Shown here piece by piece: positions 9,087 to 64,000 of a stretch of DNA of 64,000 nt. The DNA lies in contig CM060731.1 in the NCBI GenBank assembly GCA_030704615.1, forward strand, positions 63,736,001 through 63,800,000, written 5' to 3'. Each line of letters starts with the position of its first letter. Positions within the stretch are counted from its first letter, which is position 1. A model generated the notes under the pieces. The model did no database searches. It had not been told where the DNA came from and saw only the letters and a list, made by a program, of their open reading frames with translations. Position numbers and translations under genes: made by a program. Origin of the DNA: Takakia lepidozioides (taxonomy: Eukaryota; Plantae; Bryophyta).

Positions 9087-10350
9087 AACACTTCAGTGCG
9101 CCCTGCAAGACGAATCTCATGAGTCTCATGACAACAGTCCTCTCAGGAGACCACTCCAATTGCCTCTCCAGTAGACTCTACAGACTCGCAAGTAGGCTGG
9201 GTCCTGGTCCCACTACACTCAGCCGACTCGGCAGAGTCACAACTCAGCAGACTCAGAAGACTCATCACTCAGCAGACTCGGCATAATGAGCAGACTTAGC
9301 ATAATGGGCAGACTCAGCAGACTCGACAGACTCGACAGATTGAGCAGACTCAGCAGACTTGACAGATTGAGCAGACTCAGGTCTGAGTGGGCAAACCGAG
9401 CAGACTGTCCTCATTCAAAAGACTAGGCAGATTTGCCAGACTGAGCAGACTGAACGGACTCAACCAGCGAGAGGCAGGTGTGAACGTAGTGACGTCATTC
9501 AAAAGACTGGCCCGACAGAACAGACTGGGTATGCGAGATCTTACTCCTCCACAATCGGAACGATTATATGATGGCAGTCTTTTATGTCTTTGCCGAGCCG
9601 AGGGACGCTCCAGCAAGAATGCAGATACTCCACTAGCCTTTCCCGTGGCCCGTCCCAATGTGTCATCATATGAGACCACGTTGAGGCTGGCAGAAGAGCA
9701 ACAGTACTTGAGTACTTCTCCTCAACCGTCTTCTCATAGAAATGACACCACAGCTCCAGCATTCTATCTGTGCACTCCGACTCCACCGTCTCAAGTGGCT
9801 TCAACTCCGGAGGCCCGATGGAGCACTCATACCGGGGGTCGCCTTCATAAAAGTGAACCATGCAATTGCCGGCCGCGACATTCCGTCGCAGGGCTGCGGC
9901 AAAACGAGAACCCAACCTGCACACAGACCACGGCCTTGTGTGAAAACCCATATACGCAACAGTCTGAGCGGACTAACTCCATTCAACAGACTGCCCATAC
10001 CGAGCGGACTGAGCGGACTCACACTTTTGAGCAGACTGGAGTGACCAGACTCAGCAGACTGGGAGGACTACTCACTGGTGCATTTGTCACTGAAGAACCA
10101 CTTCCTTGTCCGTATCCAATGCCATTTTGCGGTCCTTGTTCATGAAGACAACGGACTTGCCTTTCTTCGCAGGTTTCTTGGCAACAGGACCCTCCCAAAT
10201 TTCCTGAGTCTGCTCCACGACAGTCCTCTTCTTTGCTCTACTTGTGCCCATGGATTCGGCGACTACTGTGGCCGGGTTCGATTCAGCAGACTGACGAAGT
10301 GATGCGGTCTTGCTTCGCAACACGACTGTGTCTGCAGGCTTGTTCACACT
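9087..10350 (-). pseudogene. Ulp1/C48 SUMO-protease-like TE gene, N-terminal and central exons, truncated by the CACTA end
   Basis: Exon ...TDRMLELWCHFY...KDIKDCHHIIVPIVE ends at a GTAAG donor (~9544). Candidate His exon (HYVHTCLSL, ~9465-9495). Exon SLLERQLEW...LQGALKC runs straight into the CACTA TIR. Confidence 0.5.
9220..9460. repeat. Degenerate ~9-bp tandem repeat (agcagactc/gacagactc)
   Basis: Many consecutive cagact units; more copies at ~9960-10070. Confidence 0.85.
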
Positions 10351-10830
10351 TGCAGGACTATATTGGCAGCCTCACGGGTCGCATGCGTTGAACTAATCCA
10401 TGCATCTGTTGGCGTTGTAAGTAAGCCACATTTTCTAGTGAGACATATATATATATATATATTCAATATTTAGGATGAAGAGTTTTATTGTAAATTAGTG
10501 AGGCATTTTTTGTGTAATAATTTTTTATTCACTACATTGTAGTGAAAATAGTAGTGCACATACAATACAAATCCGAAACACCAAAAGAATTTGGATGGCT
10601 CAAAACATTTTAATTTCAATCAATGTCAAGAGTGTTTGCAAAGATCAAGTATAGCCACATTGTGTAGATCACCTACATGAGGGATTTTGCTCTATCCATA
10701 GTAGATCAAATCTTAGTCAAGTCATCAAAATCTGGTCGTAGGCTCTGTGGAAAAAAAATGCATTTGGACTTGGATGACATTGGACCCTTGGGCCAACGGC
10801 ATAGGCATACCCTAGAGGTTGCACTTGGGC

Positions 10831-12036
10831 TAGGGAATTCCAAAAAGGCCTTGATGTGAAATGCATTGCAATTCACTTGATCACCCCCCTAAAAGTGCAC
10901 AATTCAATTGAACTGCTAAAACCAGCTTGAAAACAACCCTAATTTGCAATTCAATTGAATTGTCGGCACACGATTCAATTGAATTGCAATCAATTGAATT
11001 GTTGACTGCAATTCAATTGAATTGCTAGTTGGCAATTCAATTGAATTGCTGACTACAATTGAATTGAATTGAATTGTAATCTAGAATTTTTAACTTATTT
11101 ATGTATATATTATATATATGTACATATTTAAATTATACATACGTATACAAAAGTATAAGCTAAAAATACATGTTGCCCATCTATTCTTGCTGTCCGTCTT
11201 GCCCGTGGTAAGGTTGAGCCTGAGATAAGCCTAAGGGAGAGCGAGAGAGGGAGAGAGAGAGATGAAGTCACGAAGCGCTTGTAAAAGCAGGATTGTCTCT
11301 CTTTGTGGATGTTGGTGCCAATATATGGCTATGTACATATACCAAACATAATACCAATGTATGAGTATCAACGTGTAAGAGTTTGATATATTAAACTTAT
11401 ATGGAACACACATCCCAACTTCAACATGAGCCTTTGTAAGGGTATCGAAACAATATTATTTTTGATAATTCTCAAGATGAACATATTTCTTGTTTTCTTT
11501 GTCCTGGGCCAGATACTAGTGTTAGGGGACTACATGATGATGCAGGGGAAGCCTTTCATCAATTGTCAGGTTTGATTTTGTCTGTTTCTTTCGGAGCAGC
11601 CATGTTTCTTTTGCCAGTGAATCACAGGAAGCTGCTAATCTCTCTCCGTCTCTGGCTCTCCTTTTCTAGCTGAGGCTGAGGGTGGCTTCACAACTCCACA
11701 ATTTCCTCAAGGGCACAAGAAAGAGGGCCAACAAGAATAGACGGGCAACATGTATTTTTAGCTTATATTCTTATATGTGTATAAGTATAATTTGAATATA
11801 TATACATACATACATACATACATATATATACAGAAATAAGTTAAAAATTATAGATTACAATTCAATTGAATTGCAGTCAACAATTCAATTGAATTGTCAA
11901 CTAGCAATTCAATTGAATTGCAAATTAGGGTTGTTTTCAAGCTAGTTTTAGCAGTTCAATTGAATTGCACACTTTTAGGGGGGTGATCAAGTGAATTGCA
12001 ATGCATTTCACATCAAGGCCTTTTTGGAATTCCCTA
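10831..12036. mobile_element. Non-autonomous hAT-like element with ~300-370 bp inverted arms
   Basis: Termini TAGGGAATTCCAAAAAGGCC...GGCCTTTTTGGAATTCCCTA; arms ~10831-11190 and ~11728-12036 contain CAATTCAATTGAATTG palindromes; approximate 8-bp TSD acttgggc/atttgggc. Confidence 0.75.
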
Positions 12037-49700: not shown

Positions 49701-52059
49701 AGGGTAGAGGTTAAAGGCTCCAATTACATTTTATTTATAATTACTCATAGGGTGGAGGTATTTTTGAAAGACATTTGTTAAGCAGGGTCTAAGCATGGTA
49801 GAGGTAGGCCAAAAAATACTATCACATACGAGTTTTCATAGACTGAGGTCTTCAAACTACTAGAGTGAAATTTAGGCTCGTATTGAACTTCTTCTTAAAT
49901 TGCTTTGGAGAGAATGATGATGTTGTAAGGAAAACAGACTAGTTTCTCAATCTTCAAATGGGTGTGTAACTATGACTTACGATAGATGTCAGAATGTATA
50001 CATCCTCGCTGATGTCGATAGTGACGCTCTAGATGAGTTCAAGTTTCTAGCAAGTAATGATATATAAAATGTAAATTTGTATGAAAATATAAAACGCAAG
50101 TTTTTGCTTTGTAAATTTAAAAAAAAATTGTATTAATATAGCATATTAAATATTCATGGTTGCCAAATATTTAAAAAAAATAGCCTACTGAAAACAATTA
50201 TATAATTATAGGGTGAAGAAAAAATAAAAATAAATTGAATGGATACCCCCCAGGAAAATACCATTTTATCTCACGTGTCTACCAAAATGATCAGGAGTGG
50301 CCCTCCCCAGGATGTATGATGCTATCCCATTTTGGTTACCATCGATCCTTTTCAAAGTAAGTGAAGTTCTCGATCTGTTTTAATTTTGTATTCCCTGCCC
50401 AAAGTCTCTTTTTTCGTCCCCTGAATCATTAGTACCAGCCACATGTGTAATATCTTTTGCAATTTGTATGACTAGCAGCTTTGGAGCAATGTTGTAATCA
50501 TCTTTATGCTTTTACTATGATGTAGATGTAGCCAGCCTACTACTTAACACCCAGTTCCACGTAATCGGATTGCCTTCACGACCGTAATTTGAAGCCCTGA
50601 GCACGAAAAGTTGGGCCGAGTCTCTTTTTACCAAGGTATTCGCTGAAGTCGTCATGACTAGTCCAGTGCGAAGCCACGTGAAGTCATATCATATTTTGTA
50701 GTATAATGATTGTAACAAGGAAATGTCATTGCCTCGGTGACCTATGGTACGTGACTACTCCACGGCCTGTGGGTTTGAGAATTCAAACCTCGTACCATAT
50801 CACCGGGACAGATGTGATATTTTCTTCTTAATTGTTGTATCATACCACGAAGATAAAGAAAATTTCATATTGTACGTGTACACATCAAAGTCACGAAGGA
50901 GGATGAAATAGATGTAGATGCCCGCCCATTAATGAACACCCAGTTCCATCTAGTGATCAGATTGTACTCTTCATGTGACCGACATTTGAAGCCACAAGCA
51001 TAAAAACATGGACGGGGTCTCATTTATTAGGGTGGGCTGGCACCCAAAACTAGCTTTGTAAAAGGGTCGGTATCTCACATATGGTACTACTATTACTTTA
51101 TTTTTCCATATACTAATCAAATATGATAGTTTGTAGAGCATGTTTAAGTGTATAGTAAAGGGAAAACAAAGTAAACTACGTGTGATTGGACAGGAAGAAT
51201 TATTATAAATGCTCATGAAGGCATATTCAATGCAAAATCGTTAGAATACTTCTAAAAATGATTTTGGTTTCGTGGTGAGCACGTTTAAATTCATGCATTA
51301 CGATGTTGTATATGGCTAACAGCTAATGATGAATACTCCTTTCCAAACTTTTTGCTTTTTATCTATTTTTTGTACACTCTAAAATATAGATCTATTAATT
51401 TCTTACAAATATACGTCGAAGAACTTTATAATAGATAGAGTTTGTAAGAATAGGAAGACTGATTTTGCAAACCAAGCGTAATTTATGGGGCCCTTTTATC
51501 CCCCGAGGACCACCATGTTGAACTTTGAATCCAACACATTTTCTTAGATATTGTTCACTGAAGTACTCGTCTCTAGGATCAGTGCGGAGCAACGGGAAGC
51601 CCGGCTAGCACATTTTGTGGTACAATAATTGTAATAAAAAAATGTCATTGTTTTGGTGGTATGATAAGTTACTCGACGACATGTCTTACCATATCGCCAA
51701 GACAGTGACATTTTCTTCTCATAATTGTTGTACCATACCACCAAGGTAAAGAAAATTTTCATATCAAGTATACATTGGCAAATTCACAGAGGAGGATGAA
51801 ATGACGAGGATGGGATATGAAACGATGGCTGAATGAGCAGAAATAAAAAGGAAAAATGTATGTTTGTCATTCTTTTTTGGATGAAAGGACGCGTATCGCA
51901 GAGTTCTTGAGAAATAGACCTCAAAAACAGAAAAAACGGACAACTTCCCGAACAGTCACGTAGGCTTGTACCCTTCTCGTGCTCGGAACTACGCATTGAA
52001 GGTGCCCAGTCAAATCTTGGCCATATTCTTGTTTTCTCTTGTTTGACAGGCTCTTTGAG
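46762..52059. repeat. Duplicated AT-rich repeat block (copy A ~46762-48570, partial ~48735-49180, copy B ~50431-52059)
   Basis: Long near-identical stretches, and paired ORF-track peptides (EYFSEQY.RKCVGFKV.HGGPRGIKG.., LKEPVKQEKTRIWPRFDW..). Copy A carries an extra insertion at ~47768-48281. Confidence 0.85.
47768..47900 (-). repeat. Uninterrupted copy of the small repeat that hosts the hAT-like element at 10730-12135
   Basis: Reverse complement matches tctggtcgtaggctctgtgg...gcacttgggcctc...caggctaccctag. Confidence 0.75.
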
Positions 52060-52705
52060 TTGCACGTCGGCCATCCCCTGACTGCCACTCCGGCCTATAT
52101 GGCGCCATTTTCTCCCAAAAGTCCAGAGTAAATCCCATTGGGTATAACACACCCCACCAACAAGCACATCATAGGACATCGCGTCCGTAACAATGGCTTT
52201 AGCTCTCATGATTGAGCCATCCGTAGGATGATCTGGCTGCAATCAAATGAAGAGCTCATGGCGTGTAATCCCTCACGCCTTCTCTGAACCACCCAAAGAT
52301 GTTTTGAATTTGGAAAGGGCAAGGCTCCACGTCCGTCTTTGTAAGGCCCAAGCCTGCAATTGCTGCTCTCCCCAACATCAATGGTTGTGCTCCCGAGTCC
52401 AGCAAGACCCACAGTGGCCTATATCTCCTCCCGGTTGGGCCACCCAATTGAAACACTTCATCCTGATTGTCCACCAAGACTACCCCATGAGTCACCATGC
52501 TGCGCTCAATGGCTGACCTAGCTGGCAACTTCTACAACCTTGCAGCTGCCGCTTGCCATGGCGCAGCTGTGGCTGACTTCACCCTCGAATCCAAAGCATC
52601 CATAGACTGCACCTTATCTGCTATCTCTGCAGATAGTGTCGATGCATCACCACTCTCAGAGAGTCTAGCTGCTAGTCTGAACACAGCAGCTGGCCGAATC
52701 CCTGT
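52057..52705 (-). mobile_element. Decayed, inverted Gypsy fragment (aspartic protease region) homologous to 58330-58975
   Basis: MVTHGVVLVDNQ...YRPLWVLLDSGAQPLMLGRAAIAGLGL and QPDHPTDGSIMRAKAIVTDAMSYDVLVGG parallel the main element. Confidence 0.88.
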
Positions 52706-54303
52706 CAAGTTAAATAAGCACAGTGTGAAAACAGCTAGAATAAAACTAGTTATTTGTATTTAACACTTGGATTTAGGTCAAGTGTTAAATCAGGTGTCAA
52801 GTTTAGTTTGACACCTGGTCTGTCTTATCTTCACGAGAGCGGCAGTCGCGCGGCTCATCTCTCTCGAGTTGAGCCTGCGCGACCGAGCTCCTGCATGTGT
52901 TTAGGTTTTAGTGTGCTTATGTAGGGATACAGGTTGTTGTGGGGTGGAGTCCCCATAGCTTGGGGTGCCCCTGGCTCGACTTCAGTTTCAATGAGTGATA
53001 GCGATGGATTTCATATTTCTTGTGTTGGAAGTGTATGTCCTTTTTAGCTTGTTTATCACTCGAGAGAGATCAGCTTGCATTGTCAGTGCTAGATGTGAGT
53101 TTTTAGTTAGCACTAGTATACTTGTTTTGTTTCAAAGCTTGTTTGAGAGCTGGTGAAGTGGAGAATTATGTAATCCATATATATATCTGTCGAGAACAGA
53201 ATGCTTTGCTTTGTACAAGGTTGTTGGAAGGGGCTGAACTGAGAAGCCCATATTGTTGAAAGAAGGTATTGCTTCCCGTAATATAGGTTAACCGGTGCAT
53301 TGCCGGACACTGAAGGTCGAGCAGGTTCAATCTTCACCATGGGGGCCGGTCCAAGTACTAGTGGCATCTGAAATCACCGAGTCGAGCACAAGTAGAAGCA
53401 TGTATTGGGGCTAGTGAGGCCACGAGAATGTAGAGCAGGCGGTGACAGTGTGCGGAACTGCTACCTGGGCATCGTGTTGGATTGCACGTCATCAGCCAAT
53501 GCGTGCAGATGTCGATTGTACTTATTGGTGATGTAATGCGTCAACTCTTGAGCAATATCATTTCACTGGGACGTCTCTATCACTGCGATTTTCTTGTGGA
53601 AACAGGGTAGAGCTTTGTATTATTCTGATTTTCACTGCATCGGGTGTATCATTCGGGGAAGCTGGAAGATTCCCGCCCTTCTTCATGCCTGCTAGGCTCA
53701 GGGTGGAAGGTTCAAACTACTGCGGGCTACTGATCTGGATAGGTATACAGAGGGGCAGCGATGTAGCTCAAAGGAAAGAGGAAGCGTCGCTGGCAGTTTC
53801 ATAAGAGATCGGTGACCTGCATTTTATTTCAGGGCAGACATGACTTATCCATTGGAGCTTGGTAACCTATGCAACTGCCAGAGCAGGAAGCGGTGCCGGC
53901 TTTGTCTTGATGAATCCGACTCGAGAATCGCTGGAAGATAAGCTTACAGGGAGGTAATGCTGAGGCTGTGGGCAAGGAGATGGCGAACGCTGTGAATAGT
54001 ATGTGACTGGATCAACTCGGTTGGTATCTTAGTAAATTGATTAGCAGCAAGGTGTAAAGATAAGGGATAGTCAGTGAGTGGATGGGCAGACTGTGCTGCT
54101 CCAGGGTAGCAAGCGGTGCTGCACTGCTTGATACTCTGCATAAAAAAGGGTCTTGAATGCAAAGGTACCCAACCAAGGAAGCCAGCCAGTTGGGTTAACA
54201 ATTACTCCCAAATGTACCGTGCGAGAATACAATTTCCAGGGTCGCTCCAGATACGTTGGGAACTGGTCTGAATTCTTTGTGAGTTGGGTTGTTTCCACCG
54301 AAG

Positions 54304-54550
54304 GCGGAGTTGATCGGATATTCGGCAGGTGAGACTAGTCTGTTCCTGGTTTACGAGTTGGTTGAGAAGGGAGCTCTCACCGATCGTCTTCATAACGCTG
54401 CTGCAAATGGGCATCGGCCATTACCGTGGTCAGGCAGAGTGCAGATAGCCTTGGATGTAGCGAGGGGGCTGGAGTACATCCACGATTACACCAAGGCCCA
54501 CTATGTCCACCGTGATGTCAATTCTGCTCGATGGCCTCTTCCGTGCTAAG
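54304..54550 (+). pseudogene. LysM receptor-like kinase (LYK-type) kinase-domain exon fragment
   Basis: [29 protein letters not shown]...[34 protein letters not shown], then a small deletion, then [10 protein letters not shown]|GT. Confidence 0.75.
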
Positions 54551-56415
54551 GTGTTCATCTGACACAATGTGAGAGGGAGGGGGCAGGGTGGGGGGCTAGC
54601 TAAGAAGACATGATCAGTACAAACGACCGAAGCAGTTGCTTGAAGGGGCTCCATTGATTGAACAAATCACGCAGTTAAGACAGGATCTTGGGCATTAGGC
54701 CATCGCTGTTTGGAGTGGTATTCGTGACGCTTGGCACCAGACTGCGAAGTTTTCTTTCCTACACCGACCAGTAGCAAATCCCCGACTCCCAGTTTTAAAG
54801 CTCCTGCATATGTAGAGATCCGTCCTCGGAATTACGGGTATTCGCATGAAACATGTAGGGTACGCCAAAAATACTTGTATTTATTGAAATACATTTGGAG
54901 CTTTGCTTTGATCCAATTTAAATTATACAGAGCCTGTTTTTGCCATAACTTGGTCATACAAAGGCTGTTTGACCTCAAATTTGCACAGGGACCTACAGAA
55001 AGGGGAAATCTACCTATCTAAACCTGGTTTCTGTTTTGGGACTCTGCTAAAAATCTATGGAATTTTTAGAGTGTGAGTGTGCCATGAAATATCCACAATC
55101 CTGTTTCTAGAACCTGTGCTGGTCTATATGAGAGACAAACCTTGGATGTACTCCTGTATGGCTGGGGGAAATGAGGACGTAATTGAAGGGCAGGTCTCTC
55201 TCTTAGCCTGTGCACACAAGGGGACAGGATTATGTTTCCCAAGGAACTCAGACTGATTTGAGTGGAGAACAGTTGGACGAGTTGATTGCATACTGGGAGT
55301 CAGGCATTAGCAGTAGACAACAGACTGCTGTAGTTGGCATTGAGGGCCTCAATATCGCCTTGGACAGTCAGAACTCTGTTGGAGCCAGTTCTGCAGCTGT
55401 AGGTGAAATACCAAAGTGGGTGAAAGCTAGGCTTGGAACACAGCCAAAGACAGCCCGGGACCAAGGTGTTCAGCCACAAGGCCGTGGTGTACTGGAGCAG
55501 AGGAGCAGGAGCTGCACAAGTTTGTGCAATTAGACAGTGTTGCAGCGGACACGCTCTGCACAAGGCAACCACGAGCGGGGGTTCATTAGCAGGACAAGTT
55601 TGTTCTGTTTGAAGGCGATGCAGTCATTCGCAATGAGACACCCGCAACCGTCTCAAAGCTTTCGAGTTGAGAGACTATCAGACCCTACCTTTGTTTTCTT
55701 TAGTGTTCAGTGAGCGGAGATAGCAGAGTGTTGCTTTGTCTCTACCTGGCAGAAAGAGGAGGAGGGTTGGTTAGAGCGAGCTACTGTAGCTTGGGACAAG
55801 GTTAGTGGCAGGTTTCTGGACATAGATATACCTCCTACACCTTACCATCAAGCAGAGCGAGGCACTTTGAGAGAAGTCTGGAAGTTGATAGCATAGATCA
55901 GGATTAGATCTTGCTTGGGCGGGCTTCTATTCTTCCCCTCCATCTCTGTACTATTTTCATTACCTTGTACTTGTAGTTGCCAAAGCCTCTCTTGGTGGAG
56001 GCCAGTCAGTCCGGGGTTTTGGGCTGGGATATTCTGCAGGATCAGCATTGCAGCTGGATTTTGGTGTGGGGGTGTTGATGTTTTGATTTCTTGTGTTTGG
56101 ATCCCCCCCAACACCTGCATGCTTGACTGTGCGCCATGTTGGTTTTGTGTGGGCGCTTGCTTTCATAGGGATTAGGCCGGATTTGATCACCGGTCAATCC
56201 TAGAGTATGCTGTCGGTGGTGAGGCTGGAGTGATGACCAGCAAGACCACCAGTGTTTCTTCTATGGTGAGGCTGGGTTGATGACCAGCCAACCATAGGAG
56301 TTCTTGCGGTGGATGCAGGTGCAGGTGCCCTGAGCCATTGGGATATGACCCTTAGACTGCAACAGGTGCCCACCCGTGTCACTATTAGATTAGTACTAGA
56401 GCCTTATAGTGTCAC

Positions 56416-58330
56416 GTGGAGGAGGTGCACATTGTGAGTGTCATTACGGAGTTACCCAAGGGTTTTGAGGGGAGTACGGCTACAGGCAGTAACAGTGAGA
56501 GTGGGTTCACAAGACGAGGTATTCGGTTCAGACCACCTTCACCGCCACCCTCAATTACTGTAGAGTCAGACACAGACTCGGAGGCTTCATCAACAGGTGT
56601 GCACTTTCATTCGCCATTGTTGTGGGACGACATGGAGGAGATGTATGGAGCTACCAAGGGGCCTCGTAGGTACTCTGGAGCTGTGGGCACAATCGAGTTG
56701 GATGACTTTATCCAGGAGTTCGACAGCTGGTGTGATTTGCAGCAGATGCGCAATCCACATCTATTCACCCCATTCATGGCGTGGAAGGGACTGTTCCAGC
56801 ATTTGGAAGGCCCGCCTATGGACGATTACCACGAGTTCAGGCGAGGACATGAAGCAGAGATTGAGGAGTGGAGGATGTATTGGTCACCTGACTACATCTC
56901 CATTACTCGAGGCACGACGCGACCAGTAGCTGCATCAGTACCAATAGCTCCCACTGCCAGCACTAGTAGTGGAGCAGTAGTGCTGGTACTTCTGCAGGTG
57001 GTACCAGTTCAAAGGTACTACTACTACTCCTCCTGCCACACTACAACACATGTGCCTAGATTCAACCCGGTGGTGGAGTTCTTCCAGGAGTTGCGGAGGA
57101 ACTACCAAGGTGTACGGACAGAGAAGCTGCGAAGTTTGCAAGACTTCCAGCGCAACCCAGTGAGAGCCTGCGAGAGGCGTACACTCGTATGAGGCGCTTG
57201 ATAAGTGTGACCCAAGGGGTTACTGAAGCTCAGGCAATCCAGTTTTGGTATGGAATTCTGGACAAGGAGCTCAAGAGAAGGGTGCGAGATGCAACCCTGT
57301 TACAAGCAGCCCAACCCACATTAGCAGATGTGTTTCTGCTGGCTGAGCGGATTGAGCTCAACATGGTGGAGGAGCGAGTTGTTACAATTGGATTTGGCAA
57401 GGACATGCCTGTACGGGGCACAGCTGTCAGCCCACAAGCACAAGGGACTGCCCAACAGCGTGGTCAGGGGGCAAGGTTGCCCAGCCCAAGTTCCATGGAG
57501 CTTACAGGGGACCTCAGGTGCAGAGGCCCGTGGCATCTTTTGCAGGCCAACAGCAACCAGGGGTGATATGTTGGACATGTGGAGGACCCCATGTCAAGAG
57601 AGATTGCCCAGAGAGTGGCAGAAGGCCGGCACAAGCACAGCCTGCACAGTTGCAGTGTGGGCATTGTGGCAAGTATGGGCATGGAGATGCCCAGTGTTAT
57701 GACTTGCATCCTGAGTTGCGCCCAGGCCAGTTCCAAGGGAACAATGGTGGCCGGGGGCGAGGTGGACCAGCCCAAAGAGGACGAGGTGGTCGGGCACGAG
57801 GTGCAGGCCAAGGGCAAGCTCCACATGGCCAAGGACGCGGAGGTCAGGGTGTTGACCAAGGCATGGCCAATCGGCTTCAGCAGCTAGAGCAGAGGCTCGC
57901 TGCCATGGCTATAGCTCAGGCGGGGCTCCCAGGCGGGATGGTCCACCTCCTGCTCCTGAGGGAGGATATGGGAGGCATGGGATTCATGTGCGGAGCAGCA
58001 CTACCACTAGAGCAGGTGGAGTCTGCTGCAGCCGTGACTCGAGGAGCAGCACGAGTTCCTGAGCCACGAGGTGCAGAGGTGGAGTTGGATCCACAACGTG
58101 GGGAGGCAAGCCGTCAGGAGGCTGCCTCAGTCATTCACCTTGGCGGAGACAGTGTCAACGCCATCCATGGCACCTAGTTCTCGCCCGACTGTTACCGAGG
58201 CGGAGGTTACTATGCCATTGGGGAGAGCTACACGTGCAGCACTGACGGCTAGTGCAGCCGGTGTGTTATTGGGGGCAGCCACCTCTGTGTGTCAAGCCCC
58301 ACTGTTCTCGGCAACCATGATTGCGACGCC
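56416..58330 (+). pseudogene. gag: Gag with two zinc knuckles and an RG-rich region
   Basis: RYSG..ELDDFIQEFDSWCD; FQRNPSESLREAYTRMRRL (across a frameshift); CWTCGGPHVKRDC and CGHCGKYGHGDAQC. Confidence 0.8.
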
Positions 58331-58532
58331 GGGGTGAGACCAGCTGCAGTGTTCAGACTAGCAGCAACACTCTGTGAGAGTGGGAGGTCACTTCATCTTC
58401 TGCGGAGTTAGTGGAAGGTGTAGTGGCAGAGGGATCCTCGGATTTGAGGGTCAAGACTGCCACGGCAGCGCCCTGGCAAGCTGCAGCTGCCAGATTGACG
58501 GAGCTGCCAGCTAGGCCAGCCTTGAGCGCGCC

Positions 58533-59000
58533 ATGGTGACACCTGGAGTTGTCTTGTTAGACAACCAGGGAGGCATTTTCACTTTGAGTGGACCGGCAGG
58601 CAAGAAGTACCGGCCACTGCGGGTCTTGTTGGACTCAGGAGCTCAGCCACTGATGTTGGGCAGAGCTGCTATTGCAGGTTTGGGCCTCATGGAGGCGGAT
58701 ATGGAGCCTTGTCCTTTCCAGATACAGACATCTCTGGGAGGATCAGAGCAGGCTCGCGGCATGACACGGCATCAGTTGGCTATTAGACTGCAGCCGGATC
58801 ATCCTGTAGATGGCTCAGTGATGCGAGCCAAGGCCATTGTGACAGACGCGGTCTCTTACGATGTCCTCGTTGGTGGGGCAGTGTTATACCCCATGGGCTT
58901 CACCCTGGATTTCTGGGAGGAGTCAGCATCCTACAGGCCTGGATGGCAGTCAGGGGATGGTCGCCGTGCACAGCTCCCTGTGACATTCATTGGGGGTATT
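58533..59000 (+). CDS. Retrotransposon aspartic protease domain
   Basis: VLLDSGA catalytic motif and YDVLVGG. Confidence 0.88.
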
Positions 59001-59345
59001 GCAGCTGCCCAGCGGGGCAAGATGCCAACACTAGCCGCCTTCACAGCTGCAGTTAGTTGGCCTGGAGAGTTGCTGGAAGGCAATGCCCATGCAGAGGATG
59101 TGCCACCTCCAGCAGAGCAGGATGACATGCATGGTACGGCGGAGTTGCCTGCCATGGTTGCTCACACTCCGTTGTGGGGTACGAGCAAGGATTTGCAGCA
59201 AGCTGCTGATGGACGGGTGCAACAAGCTTGGGTAGAAGCTTTTGTACCGTCAGGAGAGGAGGAGAGTGCGGTGATTGCACCAGGGCCACCTCAGTTGTCG
59301 CCATTGGACACCACACCTCTTGTGTGGCAGCGGCCGGATGAAGGC

Positions 59346-60283
59346 ATTTGCCTTCTGGACTTGTTTGGCGGGATCAGCACCGGATTGGCTGCTGTGCTAG
59401 GCAGGTGTGCGGGTAAGGCGTTACCTGTATGTGGAGAGGGATGAGACTGCACGACGCGTCTCACTGCGCCATGTTGCTCAGTGGTGCAGCAGCACCCTGA
59501 GTTGTTGCCGGTGTCTGCAGTTCGTGGATATCAACAGGCCTTGCCAGCAGACATTTCGTTGCTGGGGGCGCAGGATTTGGAGCGGTTGGCTCCATTGATC
59601 TGGTAGTGGCAGGTTGGCCCTGCCAAGGGCATTCATCAGCCGGGCATGGCAATGGATTGCGAGACTCGAGGACGGGTCTGTTTTGGGAGATGGTGCGGAT
59701 TTTGCGCCACTTGCAGCTTCATCAGGCTGTATCTCCGGCATACATCTTGGAGAATGTGCCACTGATGGGTGATTCTCGGGCCAGGGTGATGGCCAGTGTG
59801 CATCAAGTCCGGTCGTGGCTTGGGTCAGCAGTATTGCTGGATGCAGCTGCAGTGGGGTCACGGGCTCATCGTCCACGACTATGGTGGACTAACTTGATGC
59901 CACCCGCACTGCTCAAGCGTGCATTTGATGGGGTGCAGCGGCCAGCACACCTCACCGTGGATGGCATTTTGGACACAGGAAGGCAGTCTCAACGTGTGAG
60001 ACACGATGACCGTTCGCCTTTGGCAGTGGTCAACAGGTGGGTCAACCACGAGCAGCATTACCTACACTGCTCAGCTTCCCAGGATCCCATGCTTTTCGGG
60101 ATGGTGGACCTGGCCTCCTGTGGGATGCTCAGTTGCAGCAGTTAGTGGAGCCTAATGCCGACGAGCGAGAGCGGGCTATGGGGTTTTCCACTGGGACCAC
60201 GGCGGTGCCTTCTCTTTCTGAGGCATCACGTCGTCAGGTGTTGGGGCAAGCAATGGATCTCAATTGCTTGACCTGGATTGTCA
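59346..60283 (+). CDS. C5-cytosine DNA methyltransferase domain within the pol polyprotein (4 small frameshifts)
   Basis: Motif I LLDLFGGISTG; II YLYVERD; III DISLL; IV IDLVVAGWPCQGHS; LFWEMVRIL; VI YILENV; VIII RAHRPRLWWTN; IX ERERAMGF; X RRQVLGQAM, in canonical order. Confidence 0.9.
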
Positions 60284-60742
60284 GCTTGGCTATGGCTGAG
60301 CAACGTAGAGTGCGGAGTGCACTTCCCTTGATGGTCTCTCTGCCTACCGAGACGGTACAGGCAGCGAGTGGGGGCGAGCCGGTGAGGACCACGAGGTGTA
60401 GACATCCATGGCACATGTGGGGTGCTCGAGGTTCAGAGGGAGTTGGCAGCGAAGGCAGCTGTGATGGATGAGGTTGGGGATTCTTCTCGGGATGAGGAGG
60501 TTCTCAATGATGATGATGGGGCAGGATGAGGCCTTGTCATTGACTGAGCAGGAAGGGGGTACTGCTCAAGGGTTGCAGCATAGCAACCACGGGACGCGTC
60601 CTCTACCTCTAAGCCCACTGGACTTAAGGTTGCAGTTACGGAGGACAATTGGGAGCCTGACATTGGACCCATTGTCACCGGAGGAGAGAGACGACGTATA
60701 CGGCGGTTCCTGAGGGCTTACAGGAATTGCTTTGCCTTCAGT

Positions 60743-62270
60743 TTGAAGGACTTGGGAGCACTGAAGGGTCAAGAGATCCGTATTGAGTTGGCCACTGACA
60801 CGCCAATCTTTCGGAGACCCTATAGATACAGTGACATGGAGAGGTCTTTGATTCAGATGAGGACTCAAGATCTCTGGGAGGCAGGTTTGGTGGAGCTCTC
60901 TGGTGGAGAGTATGCTTCAGCCACAGTGATGCCAGCTAAGAAGGATGTCTATGGCAATTGGACGGAGAGACGTATGTGCGGTGATTACCGGCCTGTAAAT
61001 CGTCAGACCAAGTCCGATAGGTATGCCATGCCAACACCAGAGGAGATCTTTGATGCCATTGGGCATTCCAAGGTCTTTAGCACGTTGGATTTACGATCCG
61101 GATATCACCAGTTGCCGATCAAGGAGGCGGATAAGCAAAAGACGGCATTCTGGGGGATCAATGAGCACGGGAAGGATTGCCTATACCAGTGGCGGTTCTT
61201 ACCATTTGGGCTTAAAAACGCTCCCGCTGAGTTTCAAAGAGTCATGGACAGGATTCTAGCAGGGGTGGAGTTTGCTCGGTGCTACATAGATGACATCATC
61301 ATCTTTAGTGCTACGGTGGAGGAGCATGAGAGACACCTTCAGGGGGTATTTGAGCGCTTGAGGACGCACGGATTGAAGTTACATCCGGGCAAGTGCAAGT
61401 TTTTCCACAACCAGATTGAGTATCTGGGTCACATGATATATCCTGGAGGATTGGGGGTACAGCAGACTAAGGTAGAGTCCATTGCACAGGTTCCACGCCC
61501 CACGGATGTGAGCCGAGTTCGAGCTTTCATGGGGTTAGCAAACTATTACAGACGGTTTGTTAAGGGATTTAGTGCCATTGCAAAGGCTCTAACCAAGCTG
61601 ACCAAGGTGGACCAGGAGTGGCAGTGGGAAGATGAGCAAGAACAAGCTTTTCAAGAGCTCAAGGCGAGGTTGACCTCGGCGCCCATCTTGAGACGACCTA
61701 TCAGGGGGCGTCCTTTTCAGCTGCATACAGATTGGAGCATGCTGGGGCTTGGAGCGGTGCTCACACAGGTGGATGATGAGGGAAGAGAGTTCGTAGTGGC
61801 TTATGCTAGCCGCTCGAACAATGCTGCAGAGTCTAAGTATAGCTCATATGAGGGAGAATGCTTAGCTGCAGTGTGGGCCGTGGCACACTTCAGGTGCTAT
61901 CTATACGGCAATCTCTTCACCCTTGTCACGGATCACCAACCACTCAAGTGGTTGATGGAGTCAGACAAGCTTACGGGGAAGCTTGCACGGTGGGCACTCA
62001 TCCTTCAAGAGTATGACTTTCAGGTGGTGCATCGACCGGGTTTGGTCAATCGAAATGCAGATGGGTTGAGTCGCAATCCATGCACGAGCCAGCAGGATGA
62101 CACTGGAGCTCGGTGGCATGGTGAGACGGACGAGGAGATGGTGCCCGGATGGCATGCATCTGCATTTCTGTGTATCTTGGCAGCGGAAGGCCAGGTTGGA
62201 CCTACAACAGGGATGACTGTAGATCAAGTGTCTGAGGACCCTGAGGCCAGCAATGAGCAGGTGGCGCCAA
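60743..62270 (+). CDS. pol: Reverse transcriptase and RNase H
   Basis: RMCGDYR, LDLRSGYHQ, LPFGLKNAP, YIDDIII, FMGLANYYRRFV, LHTDWS, VTDHQPL. Confidence 0.97.
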
Positions 62271-62292
62271 AGATATACATGAGGATTCAGTT

Positions 62293-63500
62293 GTGTTGGA
62301 CTACCTCCGCAGTGGAGACACGGCAGCCACTATGACTGCCAAGGAGAGGGATCGGATCCTACAACGAGCCAAGAGGTTCAGGTGGGAGGGGACACACCTG
62401 CTCCGAGTGTGGGAGGATGGTCGAGTGAGGATTGTGCCTCACCCAACACAGCGGGCACGGTTAGTGCGGCATGCCCATGAGGAGTTGGGGCATTTTGGGG
62501 TGCGACGCACTCATAGTCTACTGCAGGGGCAGTATTGGTGGCGTGGTATGCACACAGAGGTGCAACAATTTGTGGCTAGGTGCATGGTGTGTGACAGGGT
62601 GCGTGCTTCATTCAACGCCCCTACTCCACAATTGCACCCTCTTCCGATCATGGGATGGGCTACAGGTGGAGTCTTGACTTCGCAGGGCCGTTGCCACTGA
62701 CCATGCGCCACAACAAGTACGTGTTGGTGATGGTGGAGCACTTCTCCAAGTGGATTGAATTGGTTCCATTGCCTGATAAGGCTAGTGAGGGAGCTGCGTA
62801 TGCATTCCTGGATTGTGTGCTTAGCCGATTCGGTGCTCCAGCTGAGGTACTCACGGACCAAGGGAGAGAGTTCTTGGGGAGTTTCAGGCTTTGTGTGACA
62901 AGGCCTTGATAGACCACCGCACCACTTCTCGGGATCATCCTGAGCCGATGGCTTGGCAGAGAGAGTTGTTCAGACAGTAAAGAGGGGTTTGCGCAAGTAT
63001 GCTTGCAGAAGGGACACCTAGGAGATTGGGACCTTCAGTTACCCTGGTTAGCCATGGGCTACAGGTTCAGCAAGCAAGCATCACTTGCCTCCTTCTCACC
63101 ATACTTTCTTCTCTTTGGCCGAGAGCCGGATTTGCCTACATCCATTCGCAGAGAAGCTGCTACAGTTCTTAACCTTGACGATCCGGACGTGTGGGCACGT
63201 GCATGTGAGCAGCGTGCAGAGTTGTTCAAGAGAGTCATGCCCATGGCTTTCGAGAACCTTGCCATTGCACAACACCGTGATACGTTGAGGTATGCTACCA
63301 TACGTGGTGGGGGCTATCGTCCTGGGGTTCGGAGATTCAACCCTGGTGACTATGTCTATCTGCAGCAGACTGCTCCTACGACCCTGGATGTGACTGCAGG
63401 ACGTGTTATTTTGAGGGTTCGAGGTCTTGCCCTCAGGCGTCTTGGTCTTGGAGGGTCGGGATGGCATAACTTGGAAGGACCATGTGCGTAATTGTGCGCC
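62293..63500 (+). CDS. Integrase (HHCC zinc finger, DDE core), frameshifted
   Basis: HEELGHFG...CMVC; WSLDFAGP; LTDQGREF; DGLAERVVQTVK; SPYFLLFGRE. Confidence 0.92.
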
Positions 63501-63564
63501 ATGTCACCTTCCGAATGTCGATGGCAGGATTGACCCAAACCTGGCAGTGGTATCTGCAGGTTTG

Positions 63565-63711
63565 AGGTGCATGTTGTGTGGGTCTGCTAAAGGGGCAGCC
63601 ACCATGCTGGTGTGTGATCGATGCTCTAGAGGTTGGCATATGGGATGCTTGACTCCACCTCTTGAGATGGTTCCGGATGGGGATTGGTTATGTCCACATT
63701 GCATTGGATAG
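63565..63711 (+). CDS. C-terminal PHD finger of the polyprotein
   Basis: C4HC3: CMLC...CDRC...WHMGC..PPL..VPDGDWLCPHC, followed by a stop codon. Confidence 0.92.
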   Translation, partial: RCMLCGSAKGAATMLVCDRCSRGWHMGCLTPPLEMVPDGDWLCPHCIG

Positions 63712-64000
63712 TGGGAGTGGATACAACCATGGAGGCTAACAAGAAACGCAAGGCCCAGCTACTAGGAGACCTTGAACACACGAGATCTTGGCTCAAGTTC
63801 ACAGATTGCAAGACGGCGACTAACGATGGGGCTACTCTTGTACCCGGCCTCTTGGTTATAGAGTTTGAGTACGATAGGGACAGTGATAGAGGACTTAGTA
63901 CGGCTGTGGCTATTACATCTTGTAGCTATCTGGAGGTAGAGGGACCTATCCACCAGCTAGGGGGCGATTGTGCTAGACTACTTTATTGTGCATATATGTG

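Follow-up and report, generated by a model that had tools for sequence, protein, structure and literature searches.

A Gypsy retrotransposon bearing a DNMT3-type DNA methyltransferase (DNMT), KnitGypsy-Dnmt3, has been described in Klebsormidium nitens, and the text of that study proposes that the element methylates its own DNA (PMC5890265, de Mendoza et al. 2018); according to the legend of its Fig. 4, the repeats follow a DIRS-like A-coding-B-A-B layout. Chromodomains direct the integration of chromoviruses (Gao et al. 2008, as cited in PMC6673714), and many retrotransposons encode PHD fingers according to PMC6673714; passages of PMC6673714 and PMC8557442 present the PHD finger as an accessory domain that recurs in transposable elements, with a presumed action on chromatin. 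DNMT3-bearing Gypsy elements on the one hand, and PHD fingers in transposons on the other, are already known from these texts; our literature search on PHD fingers with DNMT-bearing retrotransposons returned no text describing the pairing. Here we analyze a stretch of 64,000 nucleotides from the bryophyte Takakia lepidozioides (GCA_030704615.1, contig CM060731.1, positions 63,736,001 to 63,800,000), hereafter the window. Its final 7.6 kb correspond to one Ty3/Gypsy-type retroelement on the plus strand, in the order gag, protease (PR), DNMT, reverse transcriptase (RT), RNase H, integrase (IN) and PHD finger. Beyond the printed text that we found are the clade-wide fusion of IN and PHD finger, two positions of the DNMT and a conserved in-frame UAG.

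A PHD finger behind the integrase

The sequence-only reading of the window had placed a complete C4HC3 PHD finger at 63565-63711, and both statements hold, since the interval runs from one codon ahead of the first Cys through the stop codon and contains the eight ligands in order. Translation of 63493-63714 (plus strand) gives ...RCMLCGSAKGAATMLVCDRCSRGWHMGCLTPPLEMVPDGDWLCPHCIG, then a stop at 63709-63711; the zinc ligands lie at 63568-63702 with the spacing C-x2-C-x11-C-x2-C-x4-H-x2-C-x14-C-x2-C, which is canonical for a PHD finger. The Pfam profile PF00628 matched residues 52-96 of the 98-residue open reading frame (ORF) 63415-63711 with an E value of 1.4e-11 (44.6 bits for a cut-off of 24), which is far beyond chance, and it gave 40.6 bits in the second ORF of the related metagenome locus L073. 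An AlphaFold model of the finger, for which 17 family sequences were used, can be superposed on solved PHD fingers with a root mean square deviation of 0.7-1.4 Å over 46-50 columns (Foldseek), and the interleaved two-zinc fold is present in this predicted structure. Judged by its sequence, the finger is a genuine PHD finger of the histone-reader type.

About 20 residues ahead of the finger (63487-63510) lies a motif N-C-A-P-C-H-L-P, a conserved column in 63 aligned tails. It brings two Cys and one His, the first Cys being lost in a sub-group whose finger ends in C-x2-H.

The finger had also been described as linked to the integrase. It does stand after the IN C-terminal domain, in the place of the chromodomain of chromoviruses, but in the window copy it is outside the integrase frame, the coding frame passing near 63420 from frame 3 to frame 1. 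In a comparison of window positions 62900-64000 with contigs of the organism's own public runs (X1, X4, X6 and X8), other copies of the element showed two extra bases behind 63420, namely in 22 contigs of X1 (depth 2822 of 7860), one of X4, four of X6 and one of X8. These two bases restore IN and PHD in one frame, and the split is therefore private to the window copy and its near kin. Among the listed runs containing this stretch, none is recorded as RNA, and one may be RNA only by guess.

Metagenomes were scanned with A2, an alignment of six close sequences covering IN tail and PHD finger, the 17-sequence alignment A1 being too diverse. At least 599 stretches matched, at least 483 of which encode a relative, and 80 loci (L001-L080) at 63-78% identity were kept; because the closer alignment was the query, these loci are near kin and do not sample the clade independently. 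A single tblastn segment joined IN C-terminus and PHD finger in 60 of the 71 assessable sources, the window being among the 11 split ones, and of the 76 sources in which a PHD segment was found, 61 had kept the C4HC3 pattern intact.

On the protein side, longer proteins were searched with the RT-RNase H ORF; of the 7963 candidates scored, 5455 matched at E <= 1e-20, and the pieces of the window element were placed with phmmer on the best 120 of these 5455. The best matches (P0001-P0004, 67-72% RT identity) encode RT-RNase H-IN-PHD as a single ORF of 1033-1083 residues. Among the matches listed, the nearest named relatives are gene models of Marchantia polymorpha, 71-79% identical in RT, the best named match being a partial one (P0005, 71%) that covers PR-DNMT-RT; Closterium, Tetraselmis and Haematococcus models also occur there. 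A tree of RT-RNase H (quick IQ-TREE setting, LG+G4) was built from 92 rows, namely the window and 91 of the 120 proteins, the other 29 being animal or seed-plant models or having no single RT stretch that reaches 400 residues. An ingroup of 82 rows (SH-aLRT 99), in which the window is sister to a Marchantia model, stands apart from animal, seed-plant and chromodomain-bearing rows, the last of which (P0058, P0067, rice and Tanacetum models) are outgroup rows. The element is a member of a large clade of the green lineage, related to KnitGypsy-Dnmt3, in which, as in its own family, the IN-PHD fusion is the norm.

One of the outgroup rows, P0067 (a Haematococcus lacustris model), carries at about residues 1480-1583 a chromodomain-like segment followed by a PHD finger (PF00385, PF00628). 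Because it holds two RT stretches, this model looks chimeric.

The ratio of nonsynonymous to synonymous substitution rates (dN/dS) of the finger had a median of 0.29 (45 codons, 175 pairs with dS above 0.15), and was 0.16-0.24 for the window finger against the loci, where dS is near saturation; these values indicate that the finger has evolved under purifying selection. They bear on the idea that it is a functionless relic, passively carried. Such a relic would be in keeping with the broken state of the window and of most metagenome copies (59 of 76 segments with a stop) and with two losses of the finger in the clade. Yet the zinc ligands are invariant across lineages whose RTs are only about 45-50% identical, dN/dS lies at about 0.2-0.3, and elements with complete ORFs (L068, L073) have kept the finger intact, so that we regard a relic as very improbable.

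The stops in these 59 of 76 PHD-covering tblastn segments, which run from the IN C-terminus to the PHD finger, cluster at Gln/Arg codons upstream of the finger and recur across L001-L080 in the IN C-terminal region. They correspond to C-to-T changes (CAG to TAG, CAA to TAA, CGA to TGA), the kind of decay that would be expected from deamination of methylated cytosines. A second programmed stop within IN-PHD was considered and rejected, since the stops are C-to-T changes at Gln/Arg codons and vary in position.

Putative histone ligand and role of the finger

A resemblance to PHD fingers of the AIRE/BHC80/CHD4 type had been noticed from the letters alone, and it proved real in sequence matches, predicted-fold matches and shared pattern. 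Among PDB sequences, the best single-domain match was KDM5B PHD1 (3.7e-12), followed by KDM5A PHD1, ATXR5, PHF21A/BHC80 and DPF3, then BAZ2A/B, CHD4, UHRF1 and AIRE, with E values ranging from 1e-8 to 4e-12. The best 50 Foldseek matches in the PDB included DPF2/3, BAZ2A/B, UHRF1, ATXR5-H3, BHC80, MOZ, CHD5 and ORC1b; some of these BAZ2A/B entries are titled with an unmodified H3K4 peptide, and UHRF1 and ORC1b entries with unmodified H3. No ING, BPTF or TAF3-type (cage-type) reader of H3K4me3 was found among these 50.

The residues of the finger point in the same direction. All 8 zinc ligands, together with G, L and P, are invariant across 17 clade-spanning sequences, and M64, D68 and W91 are nearly so, corresponding to the Met before Cys3, the Asp after Cys3 and the P-x-G-x-W loop, which we take to be the residues that hold A1-R2-T3 of H3 in the BHC80, AIRE and UHRF1 complexes. 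The Gly two residues ahead of the zinc His is invariant (G73 in the 17 sequences, and likewise in the 63-row alignment), at a position where ING2 and BPTF presumably carry their cage Trp, and none of the 63 aligned tails has an aromatic residue before Cys1. By these positions, the finger is devoid of the aromatic cage of H3K4me3 readers. Its closest solved relatives, as identified by sequence, are readers of the unmodified H3 N-terminus, and it is from them that we infer an H3-tail specificity.

We propose, with a probability of roughly 0.55, that the finger is a chromatin tether of the integrase, likely docking on nucleosomes with an unmodified H3 tail in the way a chromodomain would; by this analogy, tethering of integration by the finger is likely. 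The finger would bind A1-R2-T3-K4 of the H3 tail with K4 unmethylated, and this docking would bias integration away from H3K4-methylated promoters. A UAG codon between DNMT and RT (see below) would be read through at low frequency, which would place the DNMT with Gag in the abundant upstream product and yield IN-PHD more rarely, on readthrough only. DNMT and PHD would act at separate steps, the former methylating the element's own DNA and the latter choosing the site, and would not form an allosteric reader-writer unit.

Several observations weigh against this proposal. An acidic residue (Asp/Glu) stands two positions past Cys2 in 9 of the 10 nearest relatives, with Ser in the window and Arg in P0001, and because of this Ser the K4-contact residue of the window finger is uncertain. 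The structural model is of moderate confidence (predicted local distance difference test 82-89 over the finger, mean 74.7). The finger seems dispensable, because it was lost twice while the elements persisted, and any targeting would be coarse, because unmodified H3K4 covers most of a genome. The copy in the window lies about 1.9 kb from a kinase-like exon, which is not obvious heterochromatin. Finally, the context of the UAG in related loci is mostly CAACCC and not a perfect CARYYA; CAACCA and CAG TTA also occur.

The finger might also be functional and read something other than the H3 tail, for example the H3-like N-terminus of a host protein, another histone site or a partner in nuclear entry or particle assembly; the chromatin state at insertion sites would then not depend on it. 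The PHD finger of UHRF1 binds PAF15, and UHRF1 PHD entries with the non-histone ligands PAF15 and Stella were also among the best 50 Foldseek matches. Within the family, the acidic residue presumed to make the K4 contact varies, and the conserved NCAPCHLP motif stands just upstream of the finger. We nevertheless hold a non-H3 ligand for rather unlikely, given the near-invariant Asp after Cys3, Met and P-x-G-x-W loop with their presumed role in holding H3, the fact that all close solved relatives bind histone H3, and a position that mirrors that of the chromoviral chromodomain.

The methyltransferase and the element that carries both domains

The DNMT region of the window retains LFGGISTG (59361-59384), PCQG (59618-59629) and ENV (59750-59758), corresponding to motifs I, IV and VI, as well as RPRLWWTN (59870-59893) and ERERAMGF (60163-60186). 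Its DNMT3-like nature is borne out by the intact homologue of L073, whose best matches among solved chains were DNMT3A/3C/3B (1.5e-7) versus HaeIII/HhaI at 7e-5 or worse. A DNMT was present in 26 of the 32 loci having at least 4.6 kb upstream of the PHD finger. The other six were also devoid of PR, being 5'-truncated (L036, L040, L053, L055) or internally deleted (L059, L063), and no complete element missing the DNMT alone was found among the 32.

Deletion derivatives of two kinds were observed among L059, L063, L065, L066, L007, L027 and L029. In one group, gag is followed by the IN tail and PHD finger, PR, DNMT, RT and IN core being missing; in the other, gag-PR-DNMT and the IN tail with the PHD finger are kept and RT is missing.

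Two architectures combine both domains. Architecture 1, that of the window, is PR-DNMT-RT-RNase H-IN-PHD. Architecture 2, that of a sister sub-clade, is RT-RNase H-DNMT-IN-PHD with about 350 further residues after the finger, and was found in 16 proteins among the best 120 (P0092, P0097, P0101-P0107, P0109, P0111, P0112, P0114, P0118-P0120); this 350-residue tail has no Pfam domain, and its protein atlas scores were all below 0.9. A profile search from the PHD side through 1.84 billion representatives gave 17756 proteins at E <= 0.001, and among the best 150 of these, 19 extend 200 residues or more upstream of the IN zinc domain, with the DNMT directly before IN in 18 and RT/RNase H in one. 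Architecture 2 was again recovered there (P0145, P0179, P0194, P0199, P0217 and others). The search from the DNMT side yielded gag-PR-DNMT proteins of 1250-1450 residues resembling the first ORF, together with five more Marchantia models and one protein of Cymbomonas that combines RT, DNMT and PHD. Either domain also occurs by itself: a Closterium-like and Tetraselmis group bears a DNMT without a PHD finger, and the P0083 lineage has a PHD finger with no detectable DNMT (confirmed with Pfam).

The top scorers of the PHD-side search (P0121-P0142 and others) contain 3-9 PHD stretches and no integrase, and are presumably host multi-PHD proteins. Many of its best 150 proteins are of this kind.

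When the domain states were placed on the RT tree, the PHD state was known for 70 of the 82 ingroup rows (62 present, 8 absent) and the DNMT state for 48 (46 present, 2 absent), each with two changes at the fewest; the position of the DNMT, before RT or after RNase H, needs one. Both states were known in 36 rows, of which 28 have both domains, seven the DNMT only and one the PHD finger only. The PHD finger was lost twice in lineages that retain the DNMT, and a single lineage bears a PHD finger without DNMT. For a correlated gain or loss, the tree offers a single independent contrast, which leaves no power to test it. The suggestion that the two domains co-occur across related elements thus stands for 28 of 36 rows, but the RT tree accounts for it by shared descent, and the domains have been lost independently. 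As read from these rows, the PHD-DNMT pair is old and usually kept, and each part has persisted alone.

The same distribution bears on a stronger suggestion, made from the sequence alone, that the pair may be a transposon-encoded analogue of the ADD-DNMT3 module. In such a unit, binding of H3K4me0 would direct or activate the DNMT at the integration site. The ADD domain consists of a GATA-like zinc finger, an imperfect PHD and a C-terminal helix adjoining the methyltransferase; no ADD entry was found among 60 PDB sequence rows or the best 50 Foldseek matches, and the element's finger is a single, plain canonical PHD without the GATA-like finger. In the window family, the DNMT ends the first ORF and the PHD finger the second; over 1,000 residues and an in-frame stop lie between them, and a retroelement protease would be expected to separate the two. 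To this are added the independent changes of the two traits, with two PHD losses under a kept DNMT and one PHD-only lineage. A reader-writer unit would nonetheless suit the presence of both domains in 28 of 36 rows and in 26 of 32 loci, the pairing of a DNMT3-like enzyme with a finger of the unmodified-H3 type, and architecture 2, in which one processed protein could carry DNMT, IN and PHD. On balance, we find an ADD-DNMT3-like coupling unsupported and the reader-writer unit unlikely; elements with the DNMT immediately ahead of the integrase might still show coupling.

A broader scenario, which we offer as speculative and doubtful, would see here an old green-lineage Gypsy clade with its own chromatin toolkit, the PHD finger seeking unmethylated H3K4 and the DNMT3-like enzyme methylating the new copy. 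In one sub-clade a DNMT-IN-PHD protein would read, insert and methylate in one act, a self-silencing 'stealth' integration, and in the bryophyte family the dose of DNMT would be set by a leaky UAG.

That UAG is best seen in intact relatives. L073 encodes an ORF of 1369 amino acids (gag-PR-DNMT), a single in-frame TAG and an ORF of 1047 amino acids (RT-RNase H-IN-PHD), both intact; in L068, an in-frame TAG separates a DNMT-bearing ORF of 728 amino acids from an intact second ORF of 1047, gag being in a separate overlapping ORF. The border stop lies at 5083-5091 in L073 and 4661-4669 in L068 (Table 1 for the window), and a stop followed by CAR was present at the DNMT-RT border in 26 of 31 assessable loci (21 TAG, 5 TAA). 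UAG-CARYYA is given in the text of PMC5382211 as the type I readthrough signal of plant viruses, and we infer that the border UAG may be a leaky stop with low-frequency readthrough. It is because of this in-frame UAG that 33 PHD-bearing proteins among the best 120 begin at RT. More distant relatives (e.g. P0035 and P0047) are continuous across the border. The window copy, broken in many places, cannot encode one polyprotein holding both domains, and in the family the UAG splits the ORFs.

The order PR-RT-RNase H-IN, with an H2C2 and rve integrase, assigns the window element to Ty3/Gypsy. Integrase_H2C2 lies in ORF 62257-62700 and rve in ORF 62595-62909. Compared with continuous relatives, the coding frame changes at least seven times (near 59590, 60037, 60300-60610, 62200-62270, 62619-62655, 62876-62944 and 63420), and the window copy is a dead element. 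The window is in itself ordinary: its element is a dead copy, and the large family to which it belongs is of a kind already described.

Table 1. Coordinates of the element and of a second, related fragment in the window. Positions are counted from the first letter of the window.
Feature	Position	Strand	Evidence
Protease-region fragment of a second, related element, inverted	52058..52753	-	56% identity to window PR (tblastn), 39% to P0005; inverted repeats I1, I2
gag-like ORF	56410..57192	+	No Pfam match; 41-57% identity to region upstream of PR in related loci
Nucleocapsid-like ORF, CCHC zinc knuckle at 57656-57697	57356..58177	+	CGHCGKYGHGDAQC; PF00098 present in related polyproteins
Aspartic protease region, LLDSGA at 58626-58643	58515..59290	+	Homologous region of L073, P0035, P0065 is Asp_protease_2
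DNMT3-like C5 cytosine methyltransferase, frame changes near 59590 and 60037	59349..60471	+	PF00145, E 4.4e-13
In-frame stop TAG then CAACCA (TAG CAA CCA) at DNMT-to-RT border, candidate leaky stop	60581..60589	+	Conserved position in related loci
Reverse transcriptase and RNase H, YIDD at 61283-61294	60584..62335	+	RVT_1 1.2e-32, RT_RNaseH 3.2e-36
Integrase H2C2 and catalytic core, two overlapping frames	62257..62909	+	Integrase_H2C2 4.5e-17, rve 1.8e-12
Integrase C-terminal domain up to break	62913..63420	+	ORF 62913-63491 aligns to P0001 residues 665-959
2-base gap relative to other copies	63420..63421	+	Two letters inserted behind 63420 in contigs of four runs
End of IN C-terminal domain, NCAPCHLP, linker and PHD finger	ORF 63415..63711	+	ORF, Pfam, family alignment, model
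Non-coding tail	63712..64000	+	Matches nothing further upstream in the window

The window ends 289 bases past the PHD stop, and a search for long terminal repeats with the 3' tail of about 292 bases found none within the window; because this tail has no upstream match, the 3' repeats are placed beyond the window end. A repeat search of 50000-64000 gave only the inverted match to the second element. Repeats were seen in two relatives, both with the layout A-coding-B-A-B: L003 carries A at 1676-1975 and 10350-10649 and B at 10238-10350 and 10693-10805, and L078 carries A at 1686-2008 and 10580-10892 and B at 10461-10580 and 10889-11008. These terminal repeats are 91-94% identical, and B-A-B begins about 170-180 bases past the PHD stop.

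Two features were noted upstream of the element. The fragment of the second element lies 3.7 kb upstream of the gag ORF and shares inverted matches of 53-95 bases with 58331-58970. A kinase-like ORF (54283-54549, plus strand), with subdomains up to HRDVNS in the style of receptor-like kinases, precedes the element by about 1.9 kb. Up to 56400 neither a DFG nor an APE exon was found, and the kinase gene may therefore be interrupted or continue elsewhere.

Comparison with known systems

KnitGypsy-Dnmt3 resembles the window element in having a Gypsy domain set, a coding region that includes a DNMT3-like methyltransferase, and a streptophyte host; its A-coding-B-A-B repeat layout recurs in the relatives L003 and L078. 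A K. nitens protein, P0091 (RT-RNase H-IN-PHD, beginning near RT), falls inside the 82-row ingroup, although its RT is only 47% identical to that of the window. By contrast, the term 'PHD' occurs 0 times in the main text and three supplements of PMC5890265, a count that leaves aside the largest supplement and the figures. In the window family the DNMT belongs to a gag-PR-DNMT ORF closed by an in-frame UAG. The other PHD-bearing transposable elements belong to different classes and carry the finger elsewhere, and the passages of PMC6673714 and PMC8557442 on them describe no PHD-DNMT pairing. The long association of PHD finger and DNMT3, which spans streptophyte algae, bryophytes and chlorophytes with the DNMT in two positions, bears on the question raised by the 2018 study of why a transposon carries a methyltransferase.

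With the ADD domain and DNMT3 of animals, the element shares a reader of H3K4me0 type and a DNMT3-type methyltransferase in one genetic unit. It differs in that its finger is a single PHD without a GATA-like finger, and in that RT, RNase H and IN, together with an in-frame stop, lie between reader and writer. With PHD fingers that bind the unmodified H3 tail (KDM5A/B PHD1, PHF21A/BHC80, BAZ2A/B, ATXR5, AIRE PHD1, CHD4/5, UHRF1, DPF PHD2), the finger shares the C4HC3 fold, the pattern LxCDxC...H..CL.PPL...P.G.W.CP.C, the Asp after Cys3 and a missing aromatic cage; the window copy and P0001 depart from them by having no acidic residue two past Cys2.

As in chromoviruses, a small reader of histone tails would stand behind the IN C-terminal domain, with a presumed role in tethering to a chromatin state. 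In the window element this reader is a PHD finger, no PF00385 being found in the window ORFs, and its predicted ligand is the unmodified H3 N-terminus and not H3K9me. To our knowledge, the site choice of long terminal repeat retrotransposons is known for few tethers only, namely chromodomain-H3K9me, Ty1/Ty3-Pol III, Ty5-Sir4 and LEDGF. If true, a conserved fusion of the integrase with a PHD finger of the unmodified-H3 type would extend this set by a tether to the histone tail.

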